Shown here: one piece after another, positions 1-36,982 of the stretch
Position numbering within the stretch: position 1 is the stretch's first letter
How the letters are laid out: each line of letters begins with the position of its first letter
Assembly: GCA_964354805.1 (NCBI GenBank)
Contig: CAYHBD010000030.1
Span: forward strand, 18,337 to 82,336
DNA from: an uncultured archaeon
Lineage (GTDB): Archaea > Iainarchaeota > Iainarchaeia > Iainarchaeales > GCA-2688035
Length of the DNA: 64,000 bases
Direction of reading: 5' to 3'
Translations under genes and position numbers: made by a program
The notes under the pieces: model-generated
Seen by the model: only the letters and a program-made list of their open reading frames with translations
Database searches by the model: none
What the model was told of the DNA's origin: nothing

Positions 1-1
1 G

Positions 2-409
2 CTGAAAAGCCTTTTTGTTCCCCAAAGCATTTCTTTTGCAGCACTGGCACTTTCGCTTTTCTTGCCAAAAAAAGCAGTTGCTTATGCCGTAAAAGCAATT
101 TTTTATGAGGTTGAATCAGTGAACCTTTTCCTGCAGAACAAAATACCGAAAAAAGGAAAGGCCTGCTTTTTTGCAAGGGCAACCGAATTCAGAGACCGGT
201 TATTGGATGATCTGCGGTTCTACATTGAACTGCGTTTTGGTTTGCTTGGCGAACAAAAGCTTGCTTTTGTAAAAAAGGCTGCCGCAGTTAAAAAGAACGG
301 CTTTCAGGGGGGCAGGGTTGCCGCACTGCGCTTTTGCTTTAATGCATTTTGGGTCATTTACAACTGCAATTCAAACATTATCCTGAAAACAATTTTTGCA
401 ATTGCCTGA
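2..409 (+). CDS. Possible 3' end of a hypothetical protein (frame open from window edge)
   Basis: Frame open from position 2 to TGA at 409; no recognisable motif. Confidence 0.3.
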   Translation: MKSLFVPQSISFAALALSLFLPKKAVAYAVKAIFYEVESVNLFLQNKIPKKGKACFFARATEFRDRLLDDLRFYIELRFGLLGEQKLAFVKKAAAVKKNGFQGGRVAALRFCFNAFWVIYNCNSNIILKTIFAIA

Positions 410-467
410 AAAACCCCTAACAAAATGTTTAAATATTAGAAACCCGTTCTTTTATCAGGTGATTTAA

Positions 468-980
468 TTGAACCAGAGCGGACAGGCTTATAGTGTCTTC
501 AAGTTGCTGATTGCCGCAATCATTGCAGTAGCAATCCTTTACATACTTATTTCAATAATCGGCGGAATCAATATTTTCGGCAGCGATGTTCAAACCGTTG
601 CAAAGCAAATCATTCAAAAGCAGGTTGACATGCCTGGCCAGCTGGACACAAGCACAGCAGCCGTTTTCAAAGCAGGAACAAACCTGGCGCCAAGCGCACT
701 GGTTGGAAACAGCGGCCTGACCCCAGACCAGATTTGCCTGTATAAGGGTGACCTGGTTGACAACCAAGCAGTGGAAGTTACAGGTAGCACACTAATGCAA
801 AACGGGACAACTGATTTAACAGTGAAAATAAGCGTCATGTGCCACAAGGCAAACGCTTTAGTGGATGCCCTTGAAGAAGTAGGATTGCCGATTGATTTTG
901 GCGACACAACCACCGGAACTTGTGGATGCAACCTTGATACGCCCCAGAAATGCTGCGTGGTAATGCTGAGATTTGCTTAA
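468..980 (+). CDS. Pilin-like protein with class III signal peptide
   Basis: GGTGA RBS + TTG; MNQSG|QAYSVFKLLIAAIIAVAIL hydrophobic helix; Cys-rich C-terminus. Confidence 0.8.
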   Translation: MNQSGQAYSVFKLLIAAIIAVAILYILISIIGGINIFGSDVQTVAKQIIQKQVDMPGQLDTSTAAVFKAGTNLAPSALVGNSGLTPDQICLYKGDLVDNQAVEVTGSTLMQNGTTDLTVKISVMCHKANALVDALEEVGLPIDFGDTTTGTCGCNLDTPQKCCVVMLRFA

Positions 981-1211
981 GCCCTTCTTTTTCTTTCTTT
1001 TTTTTCATTTTTGCTGTTATTGGCTTATCCAAGCTTGTAAGCCAATTAAATTTTCCTGCAATTTCTTAACTTTGAATACAAAACAATTAGTTTCAATTTA
1101 CATTCAAAAAAATCGCATTAATAATTTCAATTTTTCAATTAAATGCCATTTAAGCGAAAACCCGCCTATCCAAAAAAATTAAATATAGCTTTTACCACAA
1201 TTATTCTTATT

Positions 1212-1385
1212 ATGTTGGCAGTTGTTAAACGGGCGCTCGGCGAGAGGAGGGCTCAGAGTGAGTGGAGCAGCGTTTACATGCTGATTGTTTTAATTATCGC
1301 TGCCCTTCTTTTGATTGCGGTAATAAAGCCGATGTTCAAGCAAAGCCAGAGCATTGTGCAGAAAACACAGCCGAAAGCAAGTTAA
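1212..1385 (+). CDS. Very short (57 aa) Flp-like pilin with class III signal peptide
   Basis: ATG at 1212; ERRA|QSEWSSVYMLIVLIIAALLLIAVI. Confidence 0.7.
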   Translation: MLAVVKRALGERRAQSEWSSVYMLIVLIIAALLLIAVIKPMFKQSQSIVQKTQPKAS

Positions 1386-1502
1386 AGAGCCCGAGGAAAA
1401 GGAATCCTTGGGAAAAAAAATTAAAAGGTGCAACTAAAATGCCGAACACAACACTGGCAAAGAGTGCCCAGGACCCAAAATGAATAATAAAGGTGCAAAG
1501 AA

Positions 1503-2324
1503 ATGCTGAACAGAAAAGGCCTTGCGAAGCAATTTTCCCAAAGCTTTTTTTCCGAAGGAAAAAAAGGCTTAGCAAAGCAATTTTTCCCAGGGGTTTTTTG
1601 CACGCGAAGCAATTTTCCCATCTTGCAAAACCCAAGGTTTTGCGAGACCTCGCAAAAGCGAAGCTTTTGCAAGGAGGCTTTTTTTGCAACGGCAAAAAAA
1701 GGCTTAAGCGAAAAAGGCCGAGCTGAAAGCCGTTTTCCCTGGGATTTTTTTGCAACAGCAAAAAAAGGCCAGGAGAGCGCGCCATTTGAGCTGCTGGTTG
1801 CTGTAATAATAATGGGCTTTGTCATATTCATTGGAACAAGTGTAATGCAGCAGGTAAATTGCGAGAAATGCAAGGGCGAAACCAATGCAAAGCTGGATCG
1901 AATGGCAACCGCGTTACAGAATGCTGACGAATCAGGCAGTATTCAACCAAACGTAAGTTTTTTTTTAAGCGGCTGCTTCAACCAACAGGAAGAAAAAATC
2001 TGGATTGAGGACGAAGACGATCCCCAAGTGTGTGCTGCCTATCATTGCGGTGAGAAGCAGTTATGCACTTTGCTGAAATACTATGGTAATGGCTGCGGCG
2101 GGTTCAGCATCATAAAGTGCCTGGATATCACCCCTGACGCCGATTTTCCTTCCATATCAGGGGGCAGGTGCGAAGAAAGAGATGGAATGCAATTAGTGGA
2201 TTTCGAGAAAAGGGAGGAGCCGATAGCAACAGGGGGCAACAAGCAGGGCAACTATTTGCTGTGGAACAAGACAGGGCAGGGCGACACTTTTTCAACAATC
2301 TGCGCTTACAGGAAAGAGGGTTGA
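1503..2324 (+). CDS. Cys-rich pilin-like protein; signal peptide carries an 83-codon repeat insertion
   Basis: MLNRKG...KKG|QESAPFELLVAVIIMGFVIF; AGGTG RBS. Confidence 0.85.
   Translation: MLNRKGLAKQFSQSFFSEGKKGLAKQFFPGVFCTRSNFPILQNPRFCETSQKRSFCKEAFFATAKKGLSEKGRAESRFPWDFFATAKKGQESAPFELLVAVIIMGFVIFIGTSVMQQVNCEKCKGETNAKLDRMATALQNADESGSIQPNVSFFLSGCFNQQEEKIWIEDEDDPQVCAAYHCGEKQLCTLLKYYGNGCGGFSIIKCLDITPDADFPSISGGRCEERDGMQLVDFEKREEPIATGGNKQGNYLLWNKTGQGDTFSTICAYRKEG
1514..1770 (+). repeat. Composite in-frame palindromic (REP-like) insertion, 249 bp net
   Basis: Bounded by AAAAGGCC at 1514-1521 and 1763-1770; several GCGAAGC/CCGAAGG hairpins and TTTTCCCA..AGGCTTTTT..AAAAAGGC modules. Confidence 0.9.
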
Positions 2325-2331
2325 TTCAACC

Positions 2332-2994
2332 ATGCTTGGATTCACTTTAAGCAAACTGAATCTGCTGATTTTGGTGACAGCCTTGTTTGGGATAATTGCA
2401 TTCTTTTTATTTACGCTAACAGACATGATGGTTGCCAGGTCGGCACAGCAAATGGTCAATGACCTTGTTGAAAGAACCAGCGGCATTATGACACCGAGCG
2501 TTGACTGCTTTGAGGAAACGGTTACAATACCAGAGGAAATAACCTACTTCAGCGGAAAACGCTTCTATTACGTAATGAAGATATCAAGGGAGCCGGCTGA
2601 ATACAACTCGGAATATCTAAGCAAATTGATTTTCAAGGTTGCGGCAAGAAAAGAGCAAACCAAATTCATTGCAACAAATAGCTATGACATGAATGCAGAA
2701 ATCATGCTTTACCAATGGCCTGTTGCAGAAATTAGAACTAACCTAAAAGAGCAAAGCAGCATTATACTTGATCCAATGAACGAAACTACTGCAAGCAATT
2801 CAGTTAAGTTAATAAAAGAGGTTTATAATAGAAAAAATTTCCTGCACGTAATTGCCTGCAATACCGACCAAGGGCAGTGTGAAATGAATGAGGGTTATGC
2901 AGGCTGCTGCGTAAAAAAATGGAGGGGCGTTGAATCAAGCTGCCTGCCGCCTGCAGAGAATTGCGAAAACTTGAGCTGCGATACAAGGGGGTAA
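2332..2994 (+). CDS. Pilin-like/N-terminally anchored Cys-rich protein
   Basis: N-terminal TM helix, amphipathic helix, Cys-rich tail; in pilin cluster. Confidence 0.75.
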   Translation: MLGFTLSKLNLLILVTALFGIIAFFLFTLTDMMVARSAQQMVNDLVERTSGIMTPSVDCFEETVTIPEEITYFSGKRFYYVMKISREPAEYNSEYLSKLIFKVAARKEQTKFIATNSYDMNAEIMLYQWPVAEIRTNLKEQSSIILDPMNETTASNSVKLIKEVYNRKNFLHVIACNTDQGQCEMNEGYAGCCVKKWRGVESSCLPPAENCENLSCDTRG

Positions 2995-2999
2995 AAAAA

Positions 3000-3500
3000 A
3001 TGAAAAACGGGGGTTTTTTGGGTCCAATTGGGGATGATTTGCCGAGCCTGATTCCGCTGCTTTTTGCTTTAATGCTTTTTTTTTATGCTTTTACATCTGC
3101 TTGGAATAATTTTGACAGGAGGAATGAGGATTTTGCCGATGACCTGGCAGTGCTCAGGGCAAGCAATGCATTGAGGGGAAACAATTATATTGCGGGAATT
3201 GAAAAATTCAATGAAAACTGCGAGACAGCGAAAGGAACCCAGAGAATGCACTTTTTGGCCGGATTGCTGCCCTTGCCTACAGGGAAAGATGAGCAATTTG
3301 TTGGAATTGATACTGAAAAAATAGTCAGCGGCGATCAAAGCTTTTTTGAAGACTTTCAATGCAGCAGCACTGAGGAAATACCCGTGCTGGAAAGCGAAAA
3401 AAGCGTTGTTAGGTTCTTTCCTGTTGCCTTGGAAACAAAAGAGGAAAACGACAAGTTTTATGTAAAGCCGATGTTGCTGGTGGTCATTGCATGGAAATAA
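3000..3500 (+). CDS. Pilin-like protein
   Basis: MKNGG|FLGPIGDDLPSLIPLLFALMLFF; GGGGT RBS; C-terminal LLVVIAW strand. Confidence 0.75.
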   Translation: MKNGGFLGPIGDDLPSLIPLLFALMLFFYAFTSAWNNFDRRNEDFADDLAVLRASNALRGNNYIAGIEKFNENCETAKGTQRMHFLAGLLPLPTGKDEQFVGIDTEKIVSGDQSFFEDFQCSSTEEIPVLESEKSVVRFFPVALETKEENDKFYVKPMLLVVIAWK

Positions 3501-4312
3501 AGCTTGGCGAAAAAGGTCCTGTTTTGCGAAGCCTATTTTCCCCAGGCTTTTGCAACAGCAAAAGGCTGTTGCGAAGCAAAACCCATTTCCCTGGGATTTT
3601 TTGCACGCGAAGCAATTTTCCCAAGGCTTTTTCACGAAGTGAAAAAGGCTTAAGCGAAAAAGGCCAGTCCAGTTTGACTGATTCCATGTTTTTCCTGGTA
3701 ATAGCCAGCATTTTGAGCACTTGGCTTTTCTATTCAAGCGCAACCTACGGCCTGACAATAGACCAGCAAATTTCAAGGCAGGGCAGGGAGGAATACACCA
3801 AGTCTGCGCTTGAAACAATTTTGTACAGCAGCGCGCCGAGGCAGGCAGGCCTTTCTTTGGAAGAAGCATCAGAGATTGACTACCTGCTTGCGGCAATAAA
3901 AGAGGACTACGCTGATGACACTGAACTGGATGAAACAAAAGCAATTCTTTTCCAGAACATAAATGCCGTAATGCAGCCGCTTGCAACAAACAGCAACTAC
4001 CTTTTCTACATATATATTGCTCAAAAAAATAAATTTGTTGTCACTTTTTTGTACGCAAGCGAAGCAAAAAACGATGACGGCTGGAGCTTAACCGGCAACA
4101 AAATTGTTTTTTCCTGCGTGCCGCCAAGCAAGCAGGCAGTGGAAGAATTCCTGCTTACGGTTGGCAGGATGTCTGTCAGCAACAGCAGAATTCAGCTGCT
4201 TGAATCAAAAGAGCCGGCTCCTGACAGATACGATGCCCTAATCACTTTAATCACTTGGATTCCAACGCCAGTTGATGAAAGCGACCTAAACTGCACTAAA
4301 TTCACTGGCTGA
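3491..4312 (+). CDS. Pilin-like protein; signal peptide carries a 49-codon repeat insertion
   Basis: MEIKLGEKG...SEKG|QSSLTDSMFFLVIASIL. Confidence 0.85.
   Translation: MEIKLGEKGPVLRSLFSPGFCNSKRLLRSKTHFPGIFCTRSNFPKAFSRSEKGLSEKGQSSLTDSMFFLVIASILSTWLFYSSATYGLTIDQQISRQGREEYTKSALETILYSSAPRQAGLSLEEASEIDYLLAAIKEDYADDTELDETKAILFQNINAVMQPLATNSNYLFYIYIAQKNKFVVTFLYASEAKNDDGWSLTGNKIVFSCVPPSKQAVEEFLLTVGRMSVSNSRIQLLESKEPAPDRYDALITLITWIPTPVDESDLNCTKFTG
3507..3663 (+). repeat. In-frame palindromic (REP-like) insertion, 147 bp net
   Basis: Bounded by GCGAAAAAGG at 3507-3516 and 3654-3663; shares TTTTTTGCACGCGAAGCAATTTTCCCA and AAAAAGGCTTAAGCGAAAAAGGCC with 1514-1770. Confidence 0.9.
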
Positions 4313-5009
4313 ATTTTTTCCCGCAATCAGGACAGACTACTGTTTCAATGCTGCCAATCCTTTCAACCTTCTTCGCGCAAGAATAACAAAAAGCTGTTCC
4401 GCACTCAGGGCAGAAAACCACTTTGCTTGCAGGCTTTGCGCATTTCGGGCACTGCTGTTCCGCTTCACCAAGATCGCCCAAACTGAATTCTTCACCTTCT
4501 TCCTTCTGCACTACACTCTGCGCTCCCTTCTTTTCCTCTGCAAAAATATCCTCAACACTCAAAGAAGCGAGTTCTTTAGCTTTATCACCCTGCGATTGCC
4601 CGGCAATTTGCTTATCCGCTTCTTCAAATTCAGACCATTCCTTTTCATCGCCCTCCGCTGTCTCCTTTTTCCCTTCCACGGATTCCCTGCCTCTTCTCCT
4701 TTCAATCTGTTTGCTGGCCTGCTCCCTTACATCTTTGTCCTTTAATTGCTGGAAAATGTTTTCTGCAATCTGGTCGTACTCGGCTTTTTCAGGGTATCTT
4801 TTGTGCTCTTCCCTGAATTTCCTCACTTCCTGCAAAGTCAAATGCATTGTCACATCCTTATCAGCCGCCTGTTTAGGCTGATCTTTTGGCATCTGTTCAA
4901 ACAAATAGTCGGCAACGCCGCCAACTTCCTTTTCGGCTGCCAAACCACCCTTTTGTTCAGCACCCTGCCTGTAAAAGCGCTTCATCCTTCTCGGAATTTC
5001 CTCAGCCAT
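4302..5009 (-). CDS. Hypothetical charged protein with C-terminal multi-CxxC zinc finger
   Basis: Start MAEEIPRR; CPKC, CPEC, CYSC, CPDC motifs. Confidence 0.7.
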   Translation of the reverse strand: MAEEIPRRMKRFYRQGAEQKGGLAAEKEVGGVADYLFEQMPKDQPKQAADKDVTMHLTLQEVRKFREEHKRYPEKAEYDQIAENIFQQLKDKDVREQASKQIERRRGRESVEGKKETAEGDEKEWSEFEEADKQIAGQSQGDKAKELASLSVEDIFAEEKKGAQSVVQKEEGEEFSLGDLGEAEQQCPKCAKPASKVVFCPECGTAFCYSCAKKVERIGSIETVVCPDCGKKFSQ

Positions 5010-5073
5010 AAAAAAACAACCTGCTTTGCTAAAATTCTTTTCCAACCCAAAAAATGCTTCTTTTTTTCCCGAT

Positions 5074-6561
5074 TTAAAATTTTTCCTTTCCCGCCTCAAG
5101 TTTCCATAACAGTAATGGCAATTCCCCTATTTTAACCCTCTTCTGTTGCATTGAATCGCGCTCCCTGAGCGTAACAGCATCATCTTTCATTGAATCATAA
5201 TCAACCGTAACAGCGAACGGAACGCCAACCTCGTCAACCCTTGCATACCTTTTTCCAATGCTTCCTTTCTCATCAAAGAAAACATCCAAGCTGAAAGAAT
5301 TCAGTTCATTAAAAATTTGCTTTGCTTTCGCATCCAATCCATCTTTGCTCACCAATGGAAAAACAGCGCAAAGATGAGGCGCAATGGCAGGGGGCAGCCT
5401 AAGGTAAATCCTTTCTTCAGGGCCTCTTTTCTCTTTCCTGAAAGCATTGTCCAAAACAACGTAAAAAGCCCTGTCAATTCCAGCCGACAGCTCAAAAACA
5501 TGCGGGATGAATTCTTTGCCGTCCTCTTTTACCGCCAGTTTCTGCTTGCTCTGCTTTTGGTGCCCTGCCAAATCAAAATCAGTCCTGTAATTGCATGCAA
5601 CCAGCTCAATCCAGCCCAAGTCTGTTTCCACTTCAAAATCCCATGTTTCCCTTGCATAAAAGGCCCTTTCATCCTTGCCAAGCTGCCTGAAACGCATTTT
5701 TCCAACAGCAATCCCAAAAGCCTCGTACAACTGCTGCAGCCTGGTCAAATAGTACGCAACCAGCTTGCCTGAAACAATTTTTTTTCCAACAGCATCCTTG
5801 CAGGAAACAGCATTAACCTTTTCCTTTCCAAACAAAAGCAAATTCAATTTATAGTTCTCCACTTCCTTAAAATTTTCCACTTCATTTATCTTTTCAGGGT
5901 TAAAGAACACTTCAATCTCCATTTGCCCTATTTCCCTCTCCCTGAGCAAAGTGTTTCTCGGGGCAATCTCGTTCCGAAAGCTGGCGCCTGCCTGCGCAAT
6001 CGCCAAGGGCAGAGTCTGCCTAGCTGTTTTGTACAGCCTTTGGAAATCGCAAAAAATGCTCTGGCAGGTTTCAGGCCTAAGGTAAGCAGCCTGCTTTCCT
6101 GTTGCGCCTATGTCCACTTTCATCATCATGTTGAATTTTTTCACTTCACTAAAATCCTTGCCCCCGCACTTCGGGCACTTTACAGCGTGCTTTTCAATCA
6201 GCTTGTCCAGTTCGCTTGTTGCAAGGCTTTCCGGAACAATTCCCTCAACTTTTTCCGCAATCAGCTTGTCAGCCCTGTGCAGTGAATTGCATTTCCTGCA
6301 CTGCACAATTGGATCGTTAAAGTTTTCAATGTGCCCGCTTGCTTTGAACACTTCTTCAGGCAGAATCTGCGAACCGAATATTTCAACCATTCCTTCCTTT
6401 TCAACCAGCTGCTTTCTCCACAAATCAATAATTTTTCTCCTGATTGTTTCCCCTTCCAAAGCGAAATCAAAAAAGCCTGAGGCAGCGCTGCTGTATATTT
6501 CGGCAGCCGGGAAAAACAAGCCCCTCCGCAGAGCCAGATTAACCAATTCATCCTTTGGCAT
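5074..6561 (-). CDS. glyS: Glycine--tRNA ligase (alpha2 type)
   Basis: LRPETCQ, FRNEIAPR, GWIELV, SIGKRYARVDEVG motifs. Confidence 0.97.
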   Translation of the reverse strand: MPKDELVNLALRRGLFFPAAEIYSSAASGFFDFALEGETIRRKIIDLWRKQLVEKEGMVEIFGSQILPEEVFKASGHIENFNDPIVQCRKCNSLHRADKLIAEKVEGIVPESLATSELDKLIEKHAVKCPKCGGKDFSEVKKFNMMMKVDIGATGKQAAYLRPETCQSIFCDFQRLYKTARQTLPLAIAQAGASFRNEIAPRNTLLREREIGQMEIEVFFNPEKINEVENFKEVENYKLNLLLFGKEKVNAVSCKDAVGKKIVSGKLVAYYLTRLQQLYEAFGIAVGKMRFRQLGKDERAFYARETWDFEVETDLGWIELVACNYRTDFDLAGHQKQSKQKLAVKEDGKEFIPHVFELSAGIDRAFYVVLDNAFRKEKRGPEERIYLRLPPAIAPHLCAVFPLVSKDGLDAKAKQIFNELNSFSLDVFFDEKGSIGKRYARVDEVGVPFAVTVDYDSMKDDAVTLRERDSMQQKRVKIGELPLLLWKLEAGKEKF

Positions 6562-10331: not shown

Positions 10332-11066
10332 CTAAATCCTGAGCGCGAATGTTTCCCTCTTTTTCTGTTTCCCTGTCCTGTCAACTCCAATCAGCTTGAA
10401 TGTTTTCGTTGCATCTGTTTTGAATTCTTTTTCCAGCTGCTTTACAGCCAAGGCAGCTGCTTTTTTTGATCCGACTATTGCATCGATTGAGTTTTTTTTC
10501 TGTGTTGCGGAAACAATTGCGGCCAGACCGTCTCTTTTTTGCAGGGATGCGAGCAATTGCCTCAGCCTGTTGAAAGCAGCAGCTGCTTTTTCCCCCCTAA
10601 GCTGCACTATTGCCTCAAAGTAATTGCTTTTCAGCTTCATGCAAGCATCGCACTGCATTGCGGGAAAAGAGATTGTTGTTTTCCTTTCAACCAGAACAGG
10701 CGTGTTTTCAATTACGCCCTTTGCCGTTACGATTGCCTGCATTTCCTTTTCACTCAACCGCTGCAATTCAACTGACAGGGCAGCATCTGTCAGCTCCTTA
10801 ACCTTGCATTTTTTTTTGACGAACTGCTTCAATAGTTCCAAGTCAAAAGCGTGCATTTTCCCTGAAAGCAAAATTTTTCCGCATTGCTTGCAGCGCTGCA
10901 ACTCGATTTTTTCAGGCAACTGCAGAAGCGTGTGCTCTTTCAGGAAGCACTGGAGGCAGCTGCCCCTTACAAAAAGGCTGTCTGTTGCACCGCAGCTCGG
11001 GCAAAATAATCTGCCCAAAGCCTTTTTGCCTTTTGGCAAAAAGCCTTGGGAAAAGTTGCTTCGCAT
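10332..11066 (-). CDS. nmd3: NMD3 family ribosome biogenesis protein; N-terminus encoded by repeat
   Basis: FCPSCG, CLQC, CKQCG, CDAC, YFEAIVQLR. Confidence 0.88.
   Translation of the reverse strand: MRSNFSQGFLPKGKKALGRLFCPSCGATDSLFVRGSCLQCFLKEHTLLQLPEKIELQRCKQCGKILLSGKMHAFDLELLKQFVKKKCKVKELTDAALSVELQRLSEKEMQAIVTAKGVIENTPVLVERKTTISFPAMQCDACMKLKSNYFEAIVQLRGEKAAAAFNRLRQLLASLQKRDGLAAIVSATQKKNSIDAIVGSKKAAALAVKQLEKEFKTDATKTFKLIGVDRTGKQKKRETFALRI
11017..11064 (-). repeat. REP-like unit at NMD3 5' end
   Basis: GCGAAGCAACTTTTCCCAAGGCTTTTTGCC-AAAA-GGCAAAAAGGCTTTG. Confidence 0.85.
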
Positions 11067-11070
11067 CCCA

Positions 11071-11913
11071 TTAACCCACCTTGAGGAATTGCTTTTTTTC
11101 AAAGCCAAAGTAGAAAACAGTACTTAACACGTAGTAGTATGTGGCAAAAACTGCCAGCAGAAACCTTACCACTATCAATAAGGAAAAAACAGCCAATTGC
11201 TGAAGCAAATTCTGTGGCCCTATTAACCATACATCAACGCTTAAGAAAATACTGATGCCCATCGTTAAAAGAAAAAAAATGAATGCTTTTATAATATTTG
11301 TGTTGTGTTTAAACGAAACTGATACTGTTTGCTTAAGTGTTTTGGAAAAATTTAAGTTCTCTAAAGAGCCAATGGGGTAAATCAAAAAATATATGAATAT
11401 AAACCAAAAGAACATTGCCAATAAAGCCGCAAAAACCAAGATTGCAGACAAAAATAAATCCCCTGATAAATAGGATGTGTAAGCAAACCAAGTAAGTGGC
11501 AACCAAACAATAAGGATTGCCACCAAAGCGGCAAATAAGGGCATAAAAATTTTTCCGAAGTGATGCAAAACATTTTGCAATGCATTCTTAAAAGATATTT
11601 TTCTCTTTTTATAATAATCTTGGACCATTGGGGGATACATCGGATTTATAAGAAAAAAATCAATCGAATCAACTGCCAGACTGTATAAGGCAATAATAAG
11701 CATAGAACCGATTATATCCAACGCCCTACTTAATTCACTGCTGCTCAAATTATATGGATTCAAAAGGGACGTATCCAATTGAAGCCCGTAATAGGTAAGC
11801 AGAATAAATGCAGGCAACTGAAAGAATGCAACCAGAATCTTCGGAATGAACAGTTTGGGGCACATTCGCAGCAGAAGAAAGCTGTCAACCATGATTCTGT
11901 AAAAGCTCATCAA
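11071..11913 (-). CDS. Multi-pass membrane protein
   Basis: About 6 hydrophobic segments; AT-rich. Confidence 0.75.
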   Translation of the reverse strand: MMSFYRIMVDSFLLLRMCPKLFIPKILVAFFQLPAFILLTYYGLQLDTSLLNPYNLSSSELSRALDIIGSMLIIALYSLAVDSIDFFLINPMYPPMVQDYYKKRKISFKNALQNVLHHFGKIFMPLFAALVAILIVWLPLTWFAYTSYLSGDLFLSAILVFAALLAMFFWFIFIYFLIYPIGSLENLNFSKTLKQTVSVSFKHNTNIIKAFIFFLLTMGISIFLSVDVWLIGPQNLLQQLAVFSLLIVVRFLLAVFATYYYVLSTVFYFGFEKKQFLKVG

Positions 11914-36634: not shown

Positions 36635-36982
36635 CTATTCCTCCAAAATGCTTTTTGACAAAATAATCGAATTAACTATGCTGTTAACGCTTGCCCTCAG
36701 TGCGGTTGCATCTGATGCATTAATACCTATTTGCACTGCATTGTTTTTAATTTTAACATGTGTTGCGCTTCTCTTAGCATGCACTGCATTTAATTCTGGA
36801 CCAATTGCTTTCAAAAAAATGCCTGCTTCTTTTTTCGGCACAGCAATGCTGATGCTCAAATCAAAGCCTTTTTTGCTTAAGCCTTTTGCTTCGCAAAACC
36901 CTTGGGAAATTTGCTTCGCCTGCAAAAAACCCTTGGGAAAAGGGTTTTGCTTACGCAAAACATATTCCGGTGAATGCTGCAA
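36635..36982 (-). CDS. pcc1: KEOPS subunit Pcc1 with repeat-encoded N-terminus
   Basis: PE..., RS, INASDATALRASVNS. Confidence 0.85.
   Translation of the reverse strand: MQHSPEYVLRKQNPFPKGFLQAKQISQGFCEAKGLSKKGFDLSISIAVPKKEAGIFLKAIGPELNAVHAKRSATHVKIKNNAVQIGINASDATALRASVNSIVNSIILSKSILEE
36864..36960 (-). repeat. REP-like composite unit in pcc1 5' end
   Basis: GCGTAAGCAAAACCCTTTTCCCAAGGGTTTTTTGCAGGCGAAGCAAATTTCCCAAGGGTTTTGCGAAGCAAAAGGCTTAAGCAAAAAAGGCTT. Confidence 0.88.

Follow-up and report, generated by a model that had tools for sequence, protein, structure and literature searches.

The window, a 64,000-nt stretch of an Iainarchaeota genome, carries a pilin-like gene whose class III leader is interrupted by an 83-codon array of short hairpin-forming repeats. 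The insertion has a modular history and keeps the reading frame, and it is part of a genome-wide, mobile-looking repeat family rather than a local oddity. We consider it probable that small mobile hairpin repeats inserted serially into the leader, that the resulting array is translated from the native ATG, and that it is discarded when a prepilin peptidase cuts at KG/Q (here and below, a slash marks the cleavage site). We infer three steps of this account, namely the movement of the units, the cleavage of the leader and the translation of the insert, the last from frame-keeping only.

The genome that contains the window (1.38 Mb, 44% GC, 49 contigs) belongs to the DPANN phylum Iainarchaeota/Diapherotrites, as judged by the names of homologous contigs and proteins. 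The NCBI annotation of the pilin-like ORF (1503-2324) gives an identical 273-aa product. Reading from the native ATG, the ORF encodes MLNRKG, then 83 codons rich in Phe, Lys, Ala and Ser, and then KKG/QESAPFELLVAVIIMGFVIFIG (Table 1). The latter stretch places a [KR]-[GAS] processing motif directly before the H-domain; this is the textbook layout of a class III (prepilin-type) site, and cleavage at this position is predicted. The CAG codon of Q90 (1770-1772) is followed by ESAPFELLVAVIIMGFVIFIG. Residues Q90, E91 and A93-L98 as well as six cysteines are invariant in an alignment of 30 pilin homologues, and the H-domain, like G89 and Q90, shows little or no variation. A short charged n-region (6 residues) is present in the orthologues and in the closely related allele L031; it is absent from the window allele, which has 89 residues in its place. 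To our knowledge, an 89-residue class III leader exceeds any known. There are three matches to Peptidase_A24 (PF01478) above the cut-off in the genome and six to the T2SSE ATPase (PF00437). When the six proteins of the pilin operon were searched against Pfam, the pilin-like ORFs matched no family.

The AF2 model of the 273-aa protein shows no structure for residues 1-89 (pLDDT about 40), followed by a 50-residue helix (residues 95-144) and a beta head with seven strands, with pLDDT values of mostly 85-95. A Foldseek search of the PDB with this model gave no match at E <= 0.001. VIA-align placed several type IV pilins among the best matches, but only with Z scores of 2.8-3.9. The peptide encoded by the 83-codon insert has a net charge of +10. 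An N-terminal extension as basic and disordered as this is expected to remain cytoplasmic.

The insert lies between two direct copies of AAAAGGCC, at 1514-1521 and 1763-1770. An earlier note, made from the sequence of this window, had pointed out their offset of 249 nt and the restoration of MLNRKG/QESAPFELLV when the intervening DNA is deleted. The coordinates are exact, and two database proteins have exactly this product, the one predicted for an empty site. The repeat unit of which the insert is built is ~45-50 nt long and consists of a short stem round a GAA loop (often GCGAAGC), TTTTCCCAAGGC, a Tn-GC/GC-An hairpin and a AAAAAGGC(TT) end. The unit thus has two internal hairpins and not terminal repeats, and the flanking AAAAGGCC is its own 3' end. 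Unit 1 appears as a 48-nt gap in the pairwise alignment and is matched by nhmmer at C30:19860-19900 (E 2.7e-10). A further match, at C30:19908-19937, falls within the segment 1570-1620, and unit 4 is matched at C30:20062-20102; the last 8 nt of unit 4 are the right copy of AAAAGGCC. Bases 1696-1719 are repeated exactly at 3642-3665, in the second pilin gene of the operon. The exact arrangement of the 249 nt is known from one contig of one assembly of repetitive DNA.

Two 27-bp hairpins that the earlier note had located at 1621-1647 and 1648-1674 do fold strongly, at -15.0 kcal/mol (z -5.3) and -12.5 kcal/mol (z -3.2), respectively; together (1621-1674) they reach -28.5 kcal/mol (z -6.5). The junction that follows them (1669-1686) forms a strong AAGGAGG (1669-1675) with an out-of-frame TTG 8 nt later. 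This TTG opens a very short frame only and could be a decoy start in the leader. Where the note had spoken of several units ending in KKG or EKG, four such stretches can be located (residues 20-22, 65-67, 70-72 and 87-89). An Rfam scan of positions 1-6000 returned only a chance-level miRNA match (22 bits compared with a gathering score of 63, E 0.72).

Only 5 stop codons occur in the 249 nt over all six frames, three of which are stop-free. The scarcity of stops comes largely from the repeat itself, so an open frame alone is weak evidence; the informative point is that the insert lengths are multiples of three. The sole internal in-frame start in the insert, TTG 1623, would give a 49-residue leader. 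We found no Shine-Dalgarno-like motif upstream of this TTG and no in-frame ATG, GTG or TTG between it and the cleavage site, where a start downstream of the insert would have spoken against the earlier reading. A Shine-Dalgarno-like AAAGG[TA]G precedes ATGCT in all six alleles of the locus. The leader contains five sense-strand T runs of 5-7 nt, four of them of 6-7 nt, and three A7 runs; T runs lie at 1545, 1594, 1679 and 1745. T runs can terminate transcription in better-studied archaea, and for this reason the pilin gene of the window may be poorly expressed.

Table 1. Features of the pilin locus, alleles of its leader, and in-frame repeat units elsewhere in the genome. Plain numbers are window positions; C numbers denote contigs.
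Feature	Position	Strand	Remarks
Pilin-like ORF	1503..2324	+	273 aa: 89-residue leader and 184-residue mature part
Shine-Dalgarno-like AAAGGTG	1489..1495	+	7 nt upstream of native ATG; read from sequence
Native leader codons MLNRKG	1503..1520	+	ATG at 1503; equal or near-equal to whole leader in orthologues
Left AAAAGGCC copy	1514..1521	+	249 nt upstream of right copy
Unit 1, 48 nt	1522..1569	+	GCGAAGC mini-hairpin, TTTTCCCAAAGC, T7/A7 hairpin; missing in allele L027
Truncated unit 2 and 5' half of unit 3 to TTTTCCCA	1570..1620	+	Common to L027
Twin-hairpin module, 2 x 27 nt	1621..1674	+	Nested in unit 3 at CCCA^AGG; 54-nt gap relative to L027
3' half of unit 3 and tail ending AAAAAGGCC	1675..1719	+	T7-GC / GC-A7 hairpin
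Unit 4, 51 nt	1720..1770	+	Missing in L027 and L028 (51-nt gap in both pairwise alignments); alignment register allows 1711-1761 equally
Mature pilin-like protein and stop codon	1770..2324	+	Starts at Q90; H-domain, then Cys-rich head
Second pilin-like gene, same operon	3491..3673 (gene at 3491-4312)	+	Same repeats in leader
Allele L031			Leader of 6 codons, in frame with native ATG; empty site
Alleles L029, L030, L032 (three assemblies)			Leader of 33 codons, in frame with native ATG
Allele L027			Leader of 38 codons, in frame with native ATG
Window allele			Leader of 89 codons, in frame with native ATG
Allele L028			Leader of 98 codons, in frame with native ATG
IleRS insert (L039)	G000 C42:28893-28939		Encoded by one reverse-oriented unit
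In-frame unit, Lon protease (L040)	C16:143962-144001		
In-frame unit, DHH-family protein (L041)	C44:6451-6518		
In-frame units, two large Sec-type secreted proteins	C25:14972-15040; C16:24996-25041		

Homologues of the mature part of the pilin are found in 39 of 41 related genomes. The leaders in the eleven orthologous loci inspected are short, with ~6 residues, and typically read M-[LV]-x-x-[KR]-G/QE[SA]APFELL. Orthologue comparison thus agrees with the idea of insertion into an originally short leader, and no equally long conserved leader, which would have contradicted it, was seen in these loci. The short orthologous leaders argue that the insert is lineage-specific and that the ancestral class III leader had 6 residues. 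In another genus, one locus (L010, G006:C83) carries a different, GC-richer in-frame insert of 21 codons between MLGG and RGG/QES, apparently built from another repeat type.

Closer relatives in public assemblies, in which the mature part is 75-82% identical and the flanks are near-identical, provide an allelic series with leaders of 6, 33, 38, 89 and 98 codons. The window allele and the 38-codon allele L027 are near-identical apart from exactly three clean indels, which measure 48, 54 and 51 nt. The array thus grew by separate module-sized, frame-keeping events, one of them nested within an existing unit. L027 is without precisely the 54 nt of the twin hairpins at the CCCA^AGG point. The repeated insertion, the nesting at CCCA^AGG and the keeping of frame that the earlier note had proposed are all borne out by this series, every allele of which is in frame with the native ATG. 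Owing to the common ancestry of the alleles, independent in-frame events at this locus are few, about 5.

In the 1.38-Mb genome, nhmmer finds 96 unit matches in 78 clusters. The 16-nt core of the unit occurs exactly 42 times in this genome, and its reversed control was never found. Within the family, genomes contain 0-91 copies of the core; in the other families sampled the count is 0 or 1. Both hairpin stems of the unit co-vary between copies. Five loci contain the 54-nt twin-hairpin module, and in each of them it interrupts a unit at CCCA^AGG; the window copy is inverted relative to the other four and so arrived independently. The bases at the 3' end of the unit, AAAAAGGC, are those of the target K-G codons AAA GGC. 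The regeneration of the KG site, to which the earlier note had drawn attention, therefore requires no selection: the unit itself supplies the K-G bases.

We considered two features that a mobile element might be expected to show. A fixed target-site duplication was rejected as a general rule, as intergenic copies are without a matching left-flank AAAGGC. The genome contains two Y1_Tnp (IS200/IS605-type) genes, at C35:572-1015 (L020) and C13:1382-1729 (L021). No repeat units were detected beside them by nhmmer (near C35:614-967 and on all of C13), and across 40 relatives, represented by incomplete MAGs, the presence of Y1_Tnp does not co-vary with repeat copy number. A Y1 transposase (IS200/IS605 or RAYT-type) as the mobiliser is therefore unsupported, as it neither adjoins the repeats nor tracks their number. 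The literature searched, the coverage of which was incomplete, contained no account of this repeat family and none of repeats inserted into archaeal signal peptides; to that extent the family appears to be undescribed.

The window pilin is not the only gene affected. In this genome, units are found in eight class III leaders, among them that of the neighbouring gene at 3491-4312, and in each case they stand behind a start that looks native and ahead of the cleavage site. The frame is kept in all eight, and both unit orientations occur. In the second pilin-like gene of the operon the leader runs from MEIKLGEKG through the repeat insert to QSSLTDSMFF. Ordinary leaders, 3-12 codons long, are found in roughly 12 to 17 further pilin-like genes. 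The invaded share is thus roughly a third of the pilin-like genes, an approximate value given that the relaxed class III screen misses some. No headless pilin adjoining a repeat cluster was seen in the genome. The multiples of three in the five alleles, the three indels and the eight leaders are an argument for a leader read from the native ATG, and for selection that removes arrays which break the frame.

Units are also found in frame in proteins of unrelated function. The IleRS, which has a single match in the genome, contains 18 additional in-frame residues that are missing in nine orthologues from the family. Further units are in frame at the N-terminus of the Lon protease, just before the DHH motif of a DHH-family protein, and in two Sec-type n-regions. 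Reverse-oriented units also fill introns in the tRNA-Leu, Ser, Val and Pro genes. In the tRNA-Val(GAC) gene of the window (46449-46569, minus strand; C30:64785-64905), the predicted 48-nt intron is almost wholly one reverse-oriented unit; the unit-filled introns of tRNA-Leu, tRNA-Ser and both tRNA-Pro genes are on other contigs.

Many units are intergenic and often end just upstream of a start codon. Forward intergenic units that end 2-3 nt before ATG (AAAAAGGCTT-ATG) are numerous (e.g. C16:17780, C16:105189, C38:360 and C7:13135), and at such loci the AAGG of the unit falls at Shine-Dalgarno distance from the start. Units also lie at two intergenic sites in the window. At 10990-11110 (minus strand), one unit lies between the stop codon of an upstream membrane-protein gene and an NMD3-like gene; an in-frame ATG is located inside the unit, but a TTG directly after the unit's AAAAAGGC gives the expected MGRLFCPSCG. 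At 36860-36982 (minus strand), the spacer that separates an RpoP-like gene from a Pcc1-like gene is occupied by two to three units. A TTG opens a reading frame through them that continues into Pcc1, and the TTG just downstream of the units is the likelier start.

We propose the following sequence of events at the window locus. The ancestral gene would have encoded MLNRKG/QESAPFELL, and hairpin-forming repeats, probably mobile, would have landed successively in the codons of the cytoplasmic, cleaved-off leader. Units would join at AAAGGC and so leave AAAGGC on both sides of each insertion. KG/Q would be rebuilt automatically and without selection, because the 3' end of the unit has the bases of the K-G codons, and arrays would form because each inserted unit offers a new AAAGGC landing site. 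The separate 54-nt twin-hairpin module would have entered one unit later, at CCCA^AGG. The stop-poor repeat would encode a basic, Phe/Lys-rich, unstructured peptide, so that the gene would stay readable from its original ATG and ribosome-binding site provided only that the array length were divisible by three. The long basic N-terminus would then remain cytoplasmic, the H-domain would enter the membrane as usual, and one of the three A24 prepilin peptidases would cut KKG/Q. The mature pilin would be unchanged, since the peptidase removes all upstream residues. KGQ sites are known to be cut by EppA-type peptidases (PMC4371748).

Several other explanations have to be weighed against serial insertion into a translated and discarded leader. 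The insert might have crippled or re-headed the gene, through a start at TTG 1623 or through termination at the T runs, to leave a decaying or weakly expressed pilin that is in frame by luck and owing to the stop-poor repeat. The five T runs of 5-7 nt on the sense strand would fit such a gene, as would the strong AAGGAGG at 1669-1675 before an out-of-frame TTG, and the insert is stop-free in three of its six frames in any case. However, the native ATG is in frame in all five alleles of the locus and in all eight invaded leaders, the three indels measure 48, 54 and 51 nt, the mature part is conserved and intact, and TTG 1623 is without a Shine-Dalgarno-like motif whereas the native ATG retains AAAGGTG. 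We therefore regard a crippled gene as unlikely. Much the same low probability attaches to the idea that the array has been co-opted as a control device, either by slippage at A7/T7 (phase variation) or by attenuation of the operon at T runs and hairpins, with array length tuning pilin dosage. Four T runs of 6-7 nt and three A7 runs are present in the leader, array length changes rapidly among near-identical strains, and about a third of the pilin-like genes are affected. Against this, none of the five alleles is out of frame, array content is not conserved between alleles, and such control would hardly make sense in IleRS, Lon or tRNA introns, all of which contain the same repeats. A broader version, that the unit's 3' end mimics the K-G codons so that the family homes to pilin leaders, where A7/T7 tracts and T-run terminators make the filament genes switchable or tunable, is in our view a long shot of similar standing.

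Two further possibilities seem to us very improbable. The insert could be cut out at the mRNA level, for instance if the tRNA-splicing endonuclease acted at a bulge-helix-bulge (BHB) motif, and the filling of tRNA-Leu, Ser, Val and Pro introns by units makes this worth considering. A scan for BHB motifs, using a scanner of limited sensitivity that recovered the right intron length for five of nine tRNA introns, found none spanning the junctions of either pilin gene. In particular, there was no candidate pairing 1514-1522 with 1763-1771 (L = 249), and only weak scattered matches were obtained, as expected of a sequence rich in A and T runs. The units in tRNA introns have the opposite orientation, and a spliced insert would not need a length divisible by three in every allele. 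The element in the pilin leader therefore appears to be tolerated at the protein level and not spliced. It is just as hard to believe that units in the window were miscounted or misordered when a repeat-rich metagenome bin was assembled. The exact protein is found on one contig only, and the units are alike enough to mislead a short-read assembler. Yet four other assemblies have inserts at the same point, one of these four matches the first ~100 nt of the array with only three mismatches, and the differences from L027 are three clean module-sized blocks, not scrambled joins.

The closest analogue appears to be the Rickettsia palindromic elements (RPEs), short palindromic repeats that are found in frame within many unrelated genes (PMC10969869). 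By this comparison the family is best read as an archaeal counterpart of the RPEs and not as a new feature of pilins. Both are short, palindromic, multi-copy repeats located in frame in unrelated protein-coding genes; both add a peptide segment without destroying the gene, and both vary in presence between close relatives. In the window genome an in-frame palindromic repeat of this type was found in intact unrelated genes, namely those of IleRS, Lon and the DHH-family protein as well as those with the eight class III and two Sec-type leaders. There are also clear differences. The archaeal units measure 45-54 nt compared with about 100-150 bp for RPEs, their host is an iainarchaeote, and the comparison concerns behaviour, not sequence relationship. 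Moreover, the archaeal units stack and nest, concentrate in cleaved leaders and form the bodies of tRNA introns.

Like MITEs and REP/BIME elements, the units are non-coding, hairpin-forming dispersed repeats with variable copy number (0-91 exact cores), and empty and filled sites exist at one locus, the empty site being that of L031. Unlike them, the archaeal unit is without clear terminal inverted repeats or a general target-site duplication, and no autonomous partner was found, no unit adjoining either of the two Y1 transposase genes. The family does not cleanly fit the definition of a MITE. REP/BIME elements associated with RAYT differ further in that many of the archaeal copies are intragenic and none flanks a Y1 gene. 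With mobile archaeal tRNA (BHB) introns the family shares its occupancy of tRNA introns in the window genome, but the pilin junctions are without a BHB motif. With respect to the class III signal peptides processed by PibD, FlaK and EppA (PMC4371748), the window pilin has the charged residue at -2, Gly at -1 and Gln at +1 followed by an H-domain, in a genome with Peptidase_A24 genes; it departs from them in its leader of 89 residues versus 6 in the orthologues, the extra part being encoded by repeats.

The locus provides an allele-dated example of selfish repeat growth inside a gene, from 6 to 33 or 38 and then to 89 or 98 codons, in module steps that are multiples of three. A cytoplasmic class III leader that is discarded would be a safe harbour for selfish repeat DNA, and it may also be targeted preferentially because of its built-in AAAGGC homology. 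Processing of the 89-residue leader, if it occurs, would mean that n-regions far longer than has been assumed are tolerated by prepilin peptidases and in SRP targeting. If the homing and switching idea were true, the repeats would drive phase or dosage variation of the cell surface of a host-dependent DPANN archaeon. The presence of one repeat family in coding genes, leaders and tRNA introns bears on the evolution of DPANN genomes and of their introns.
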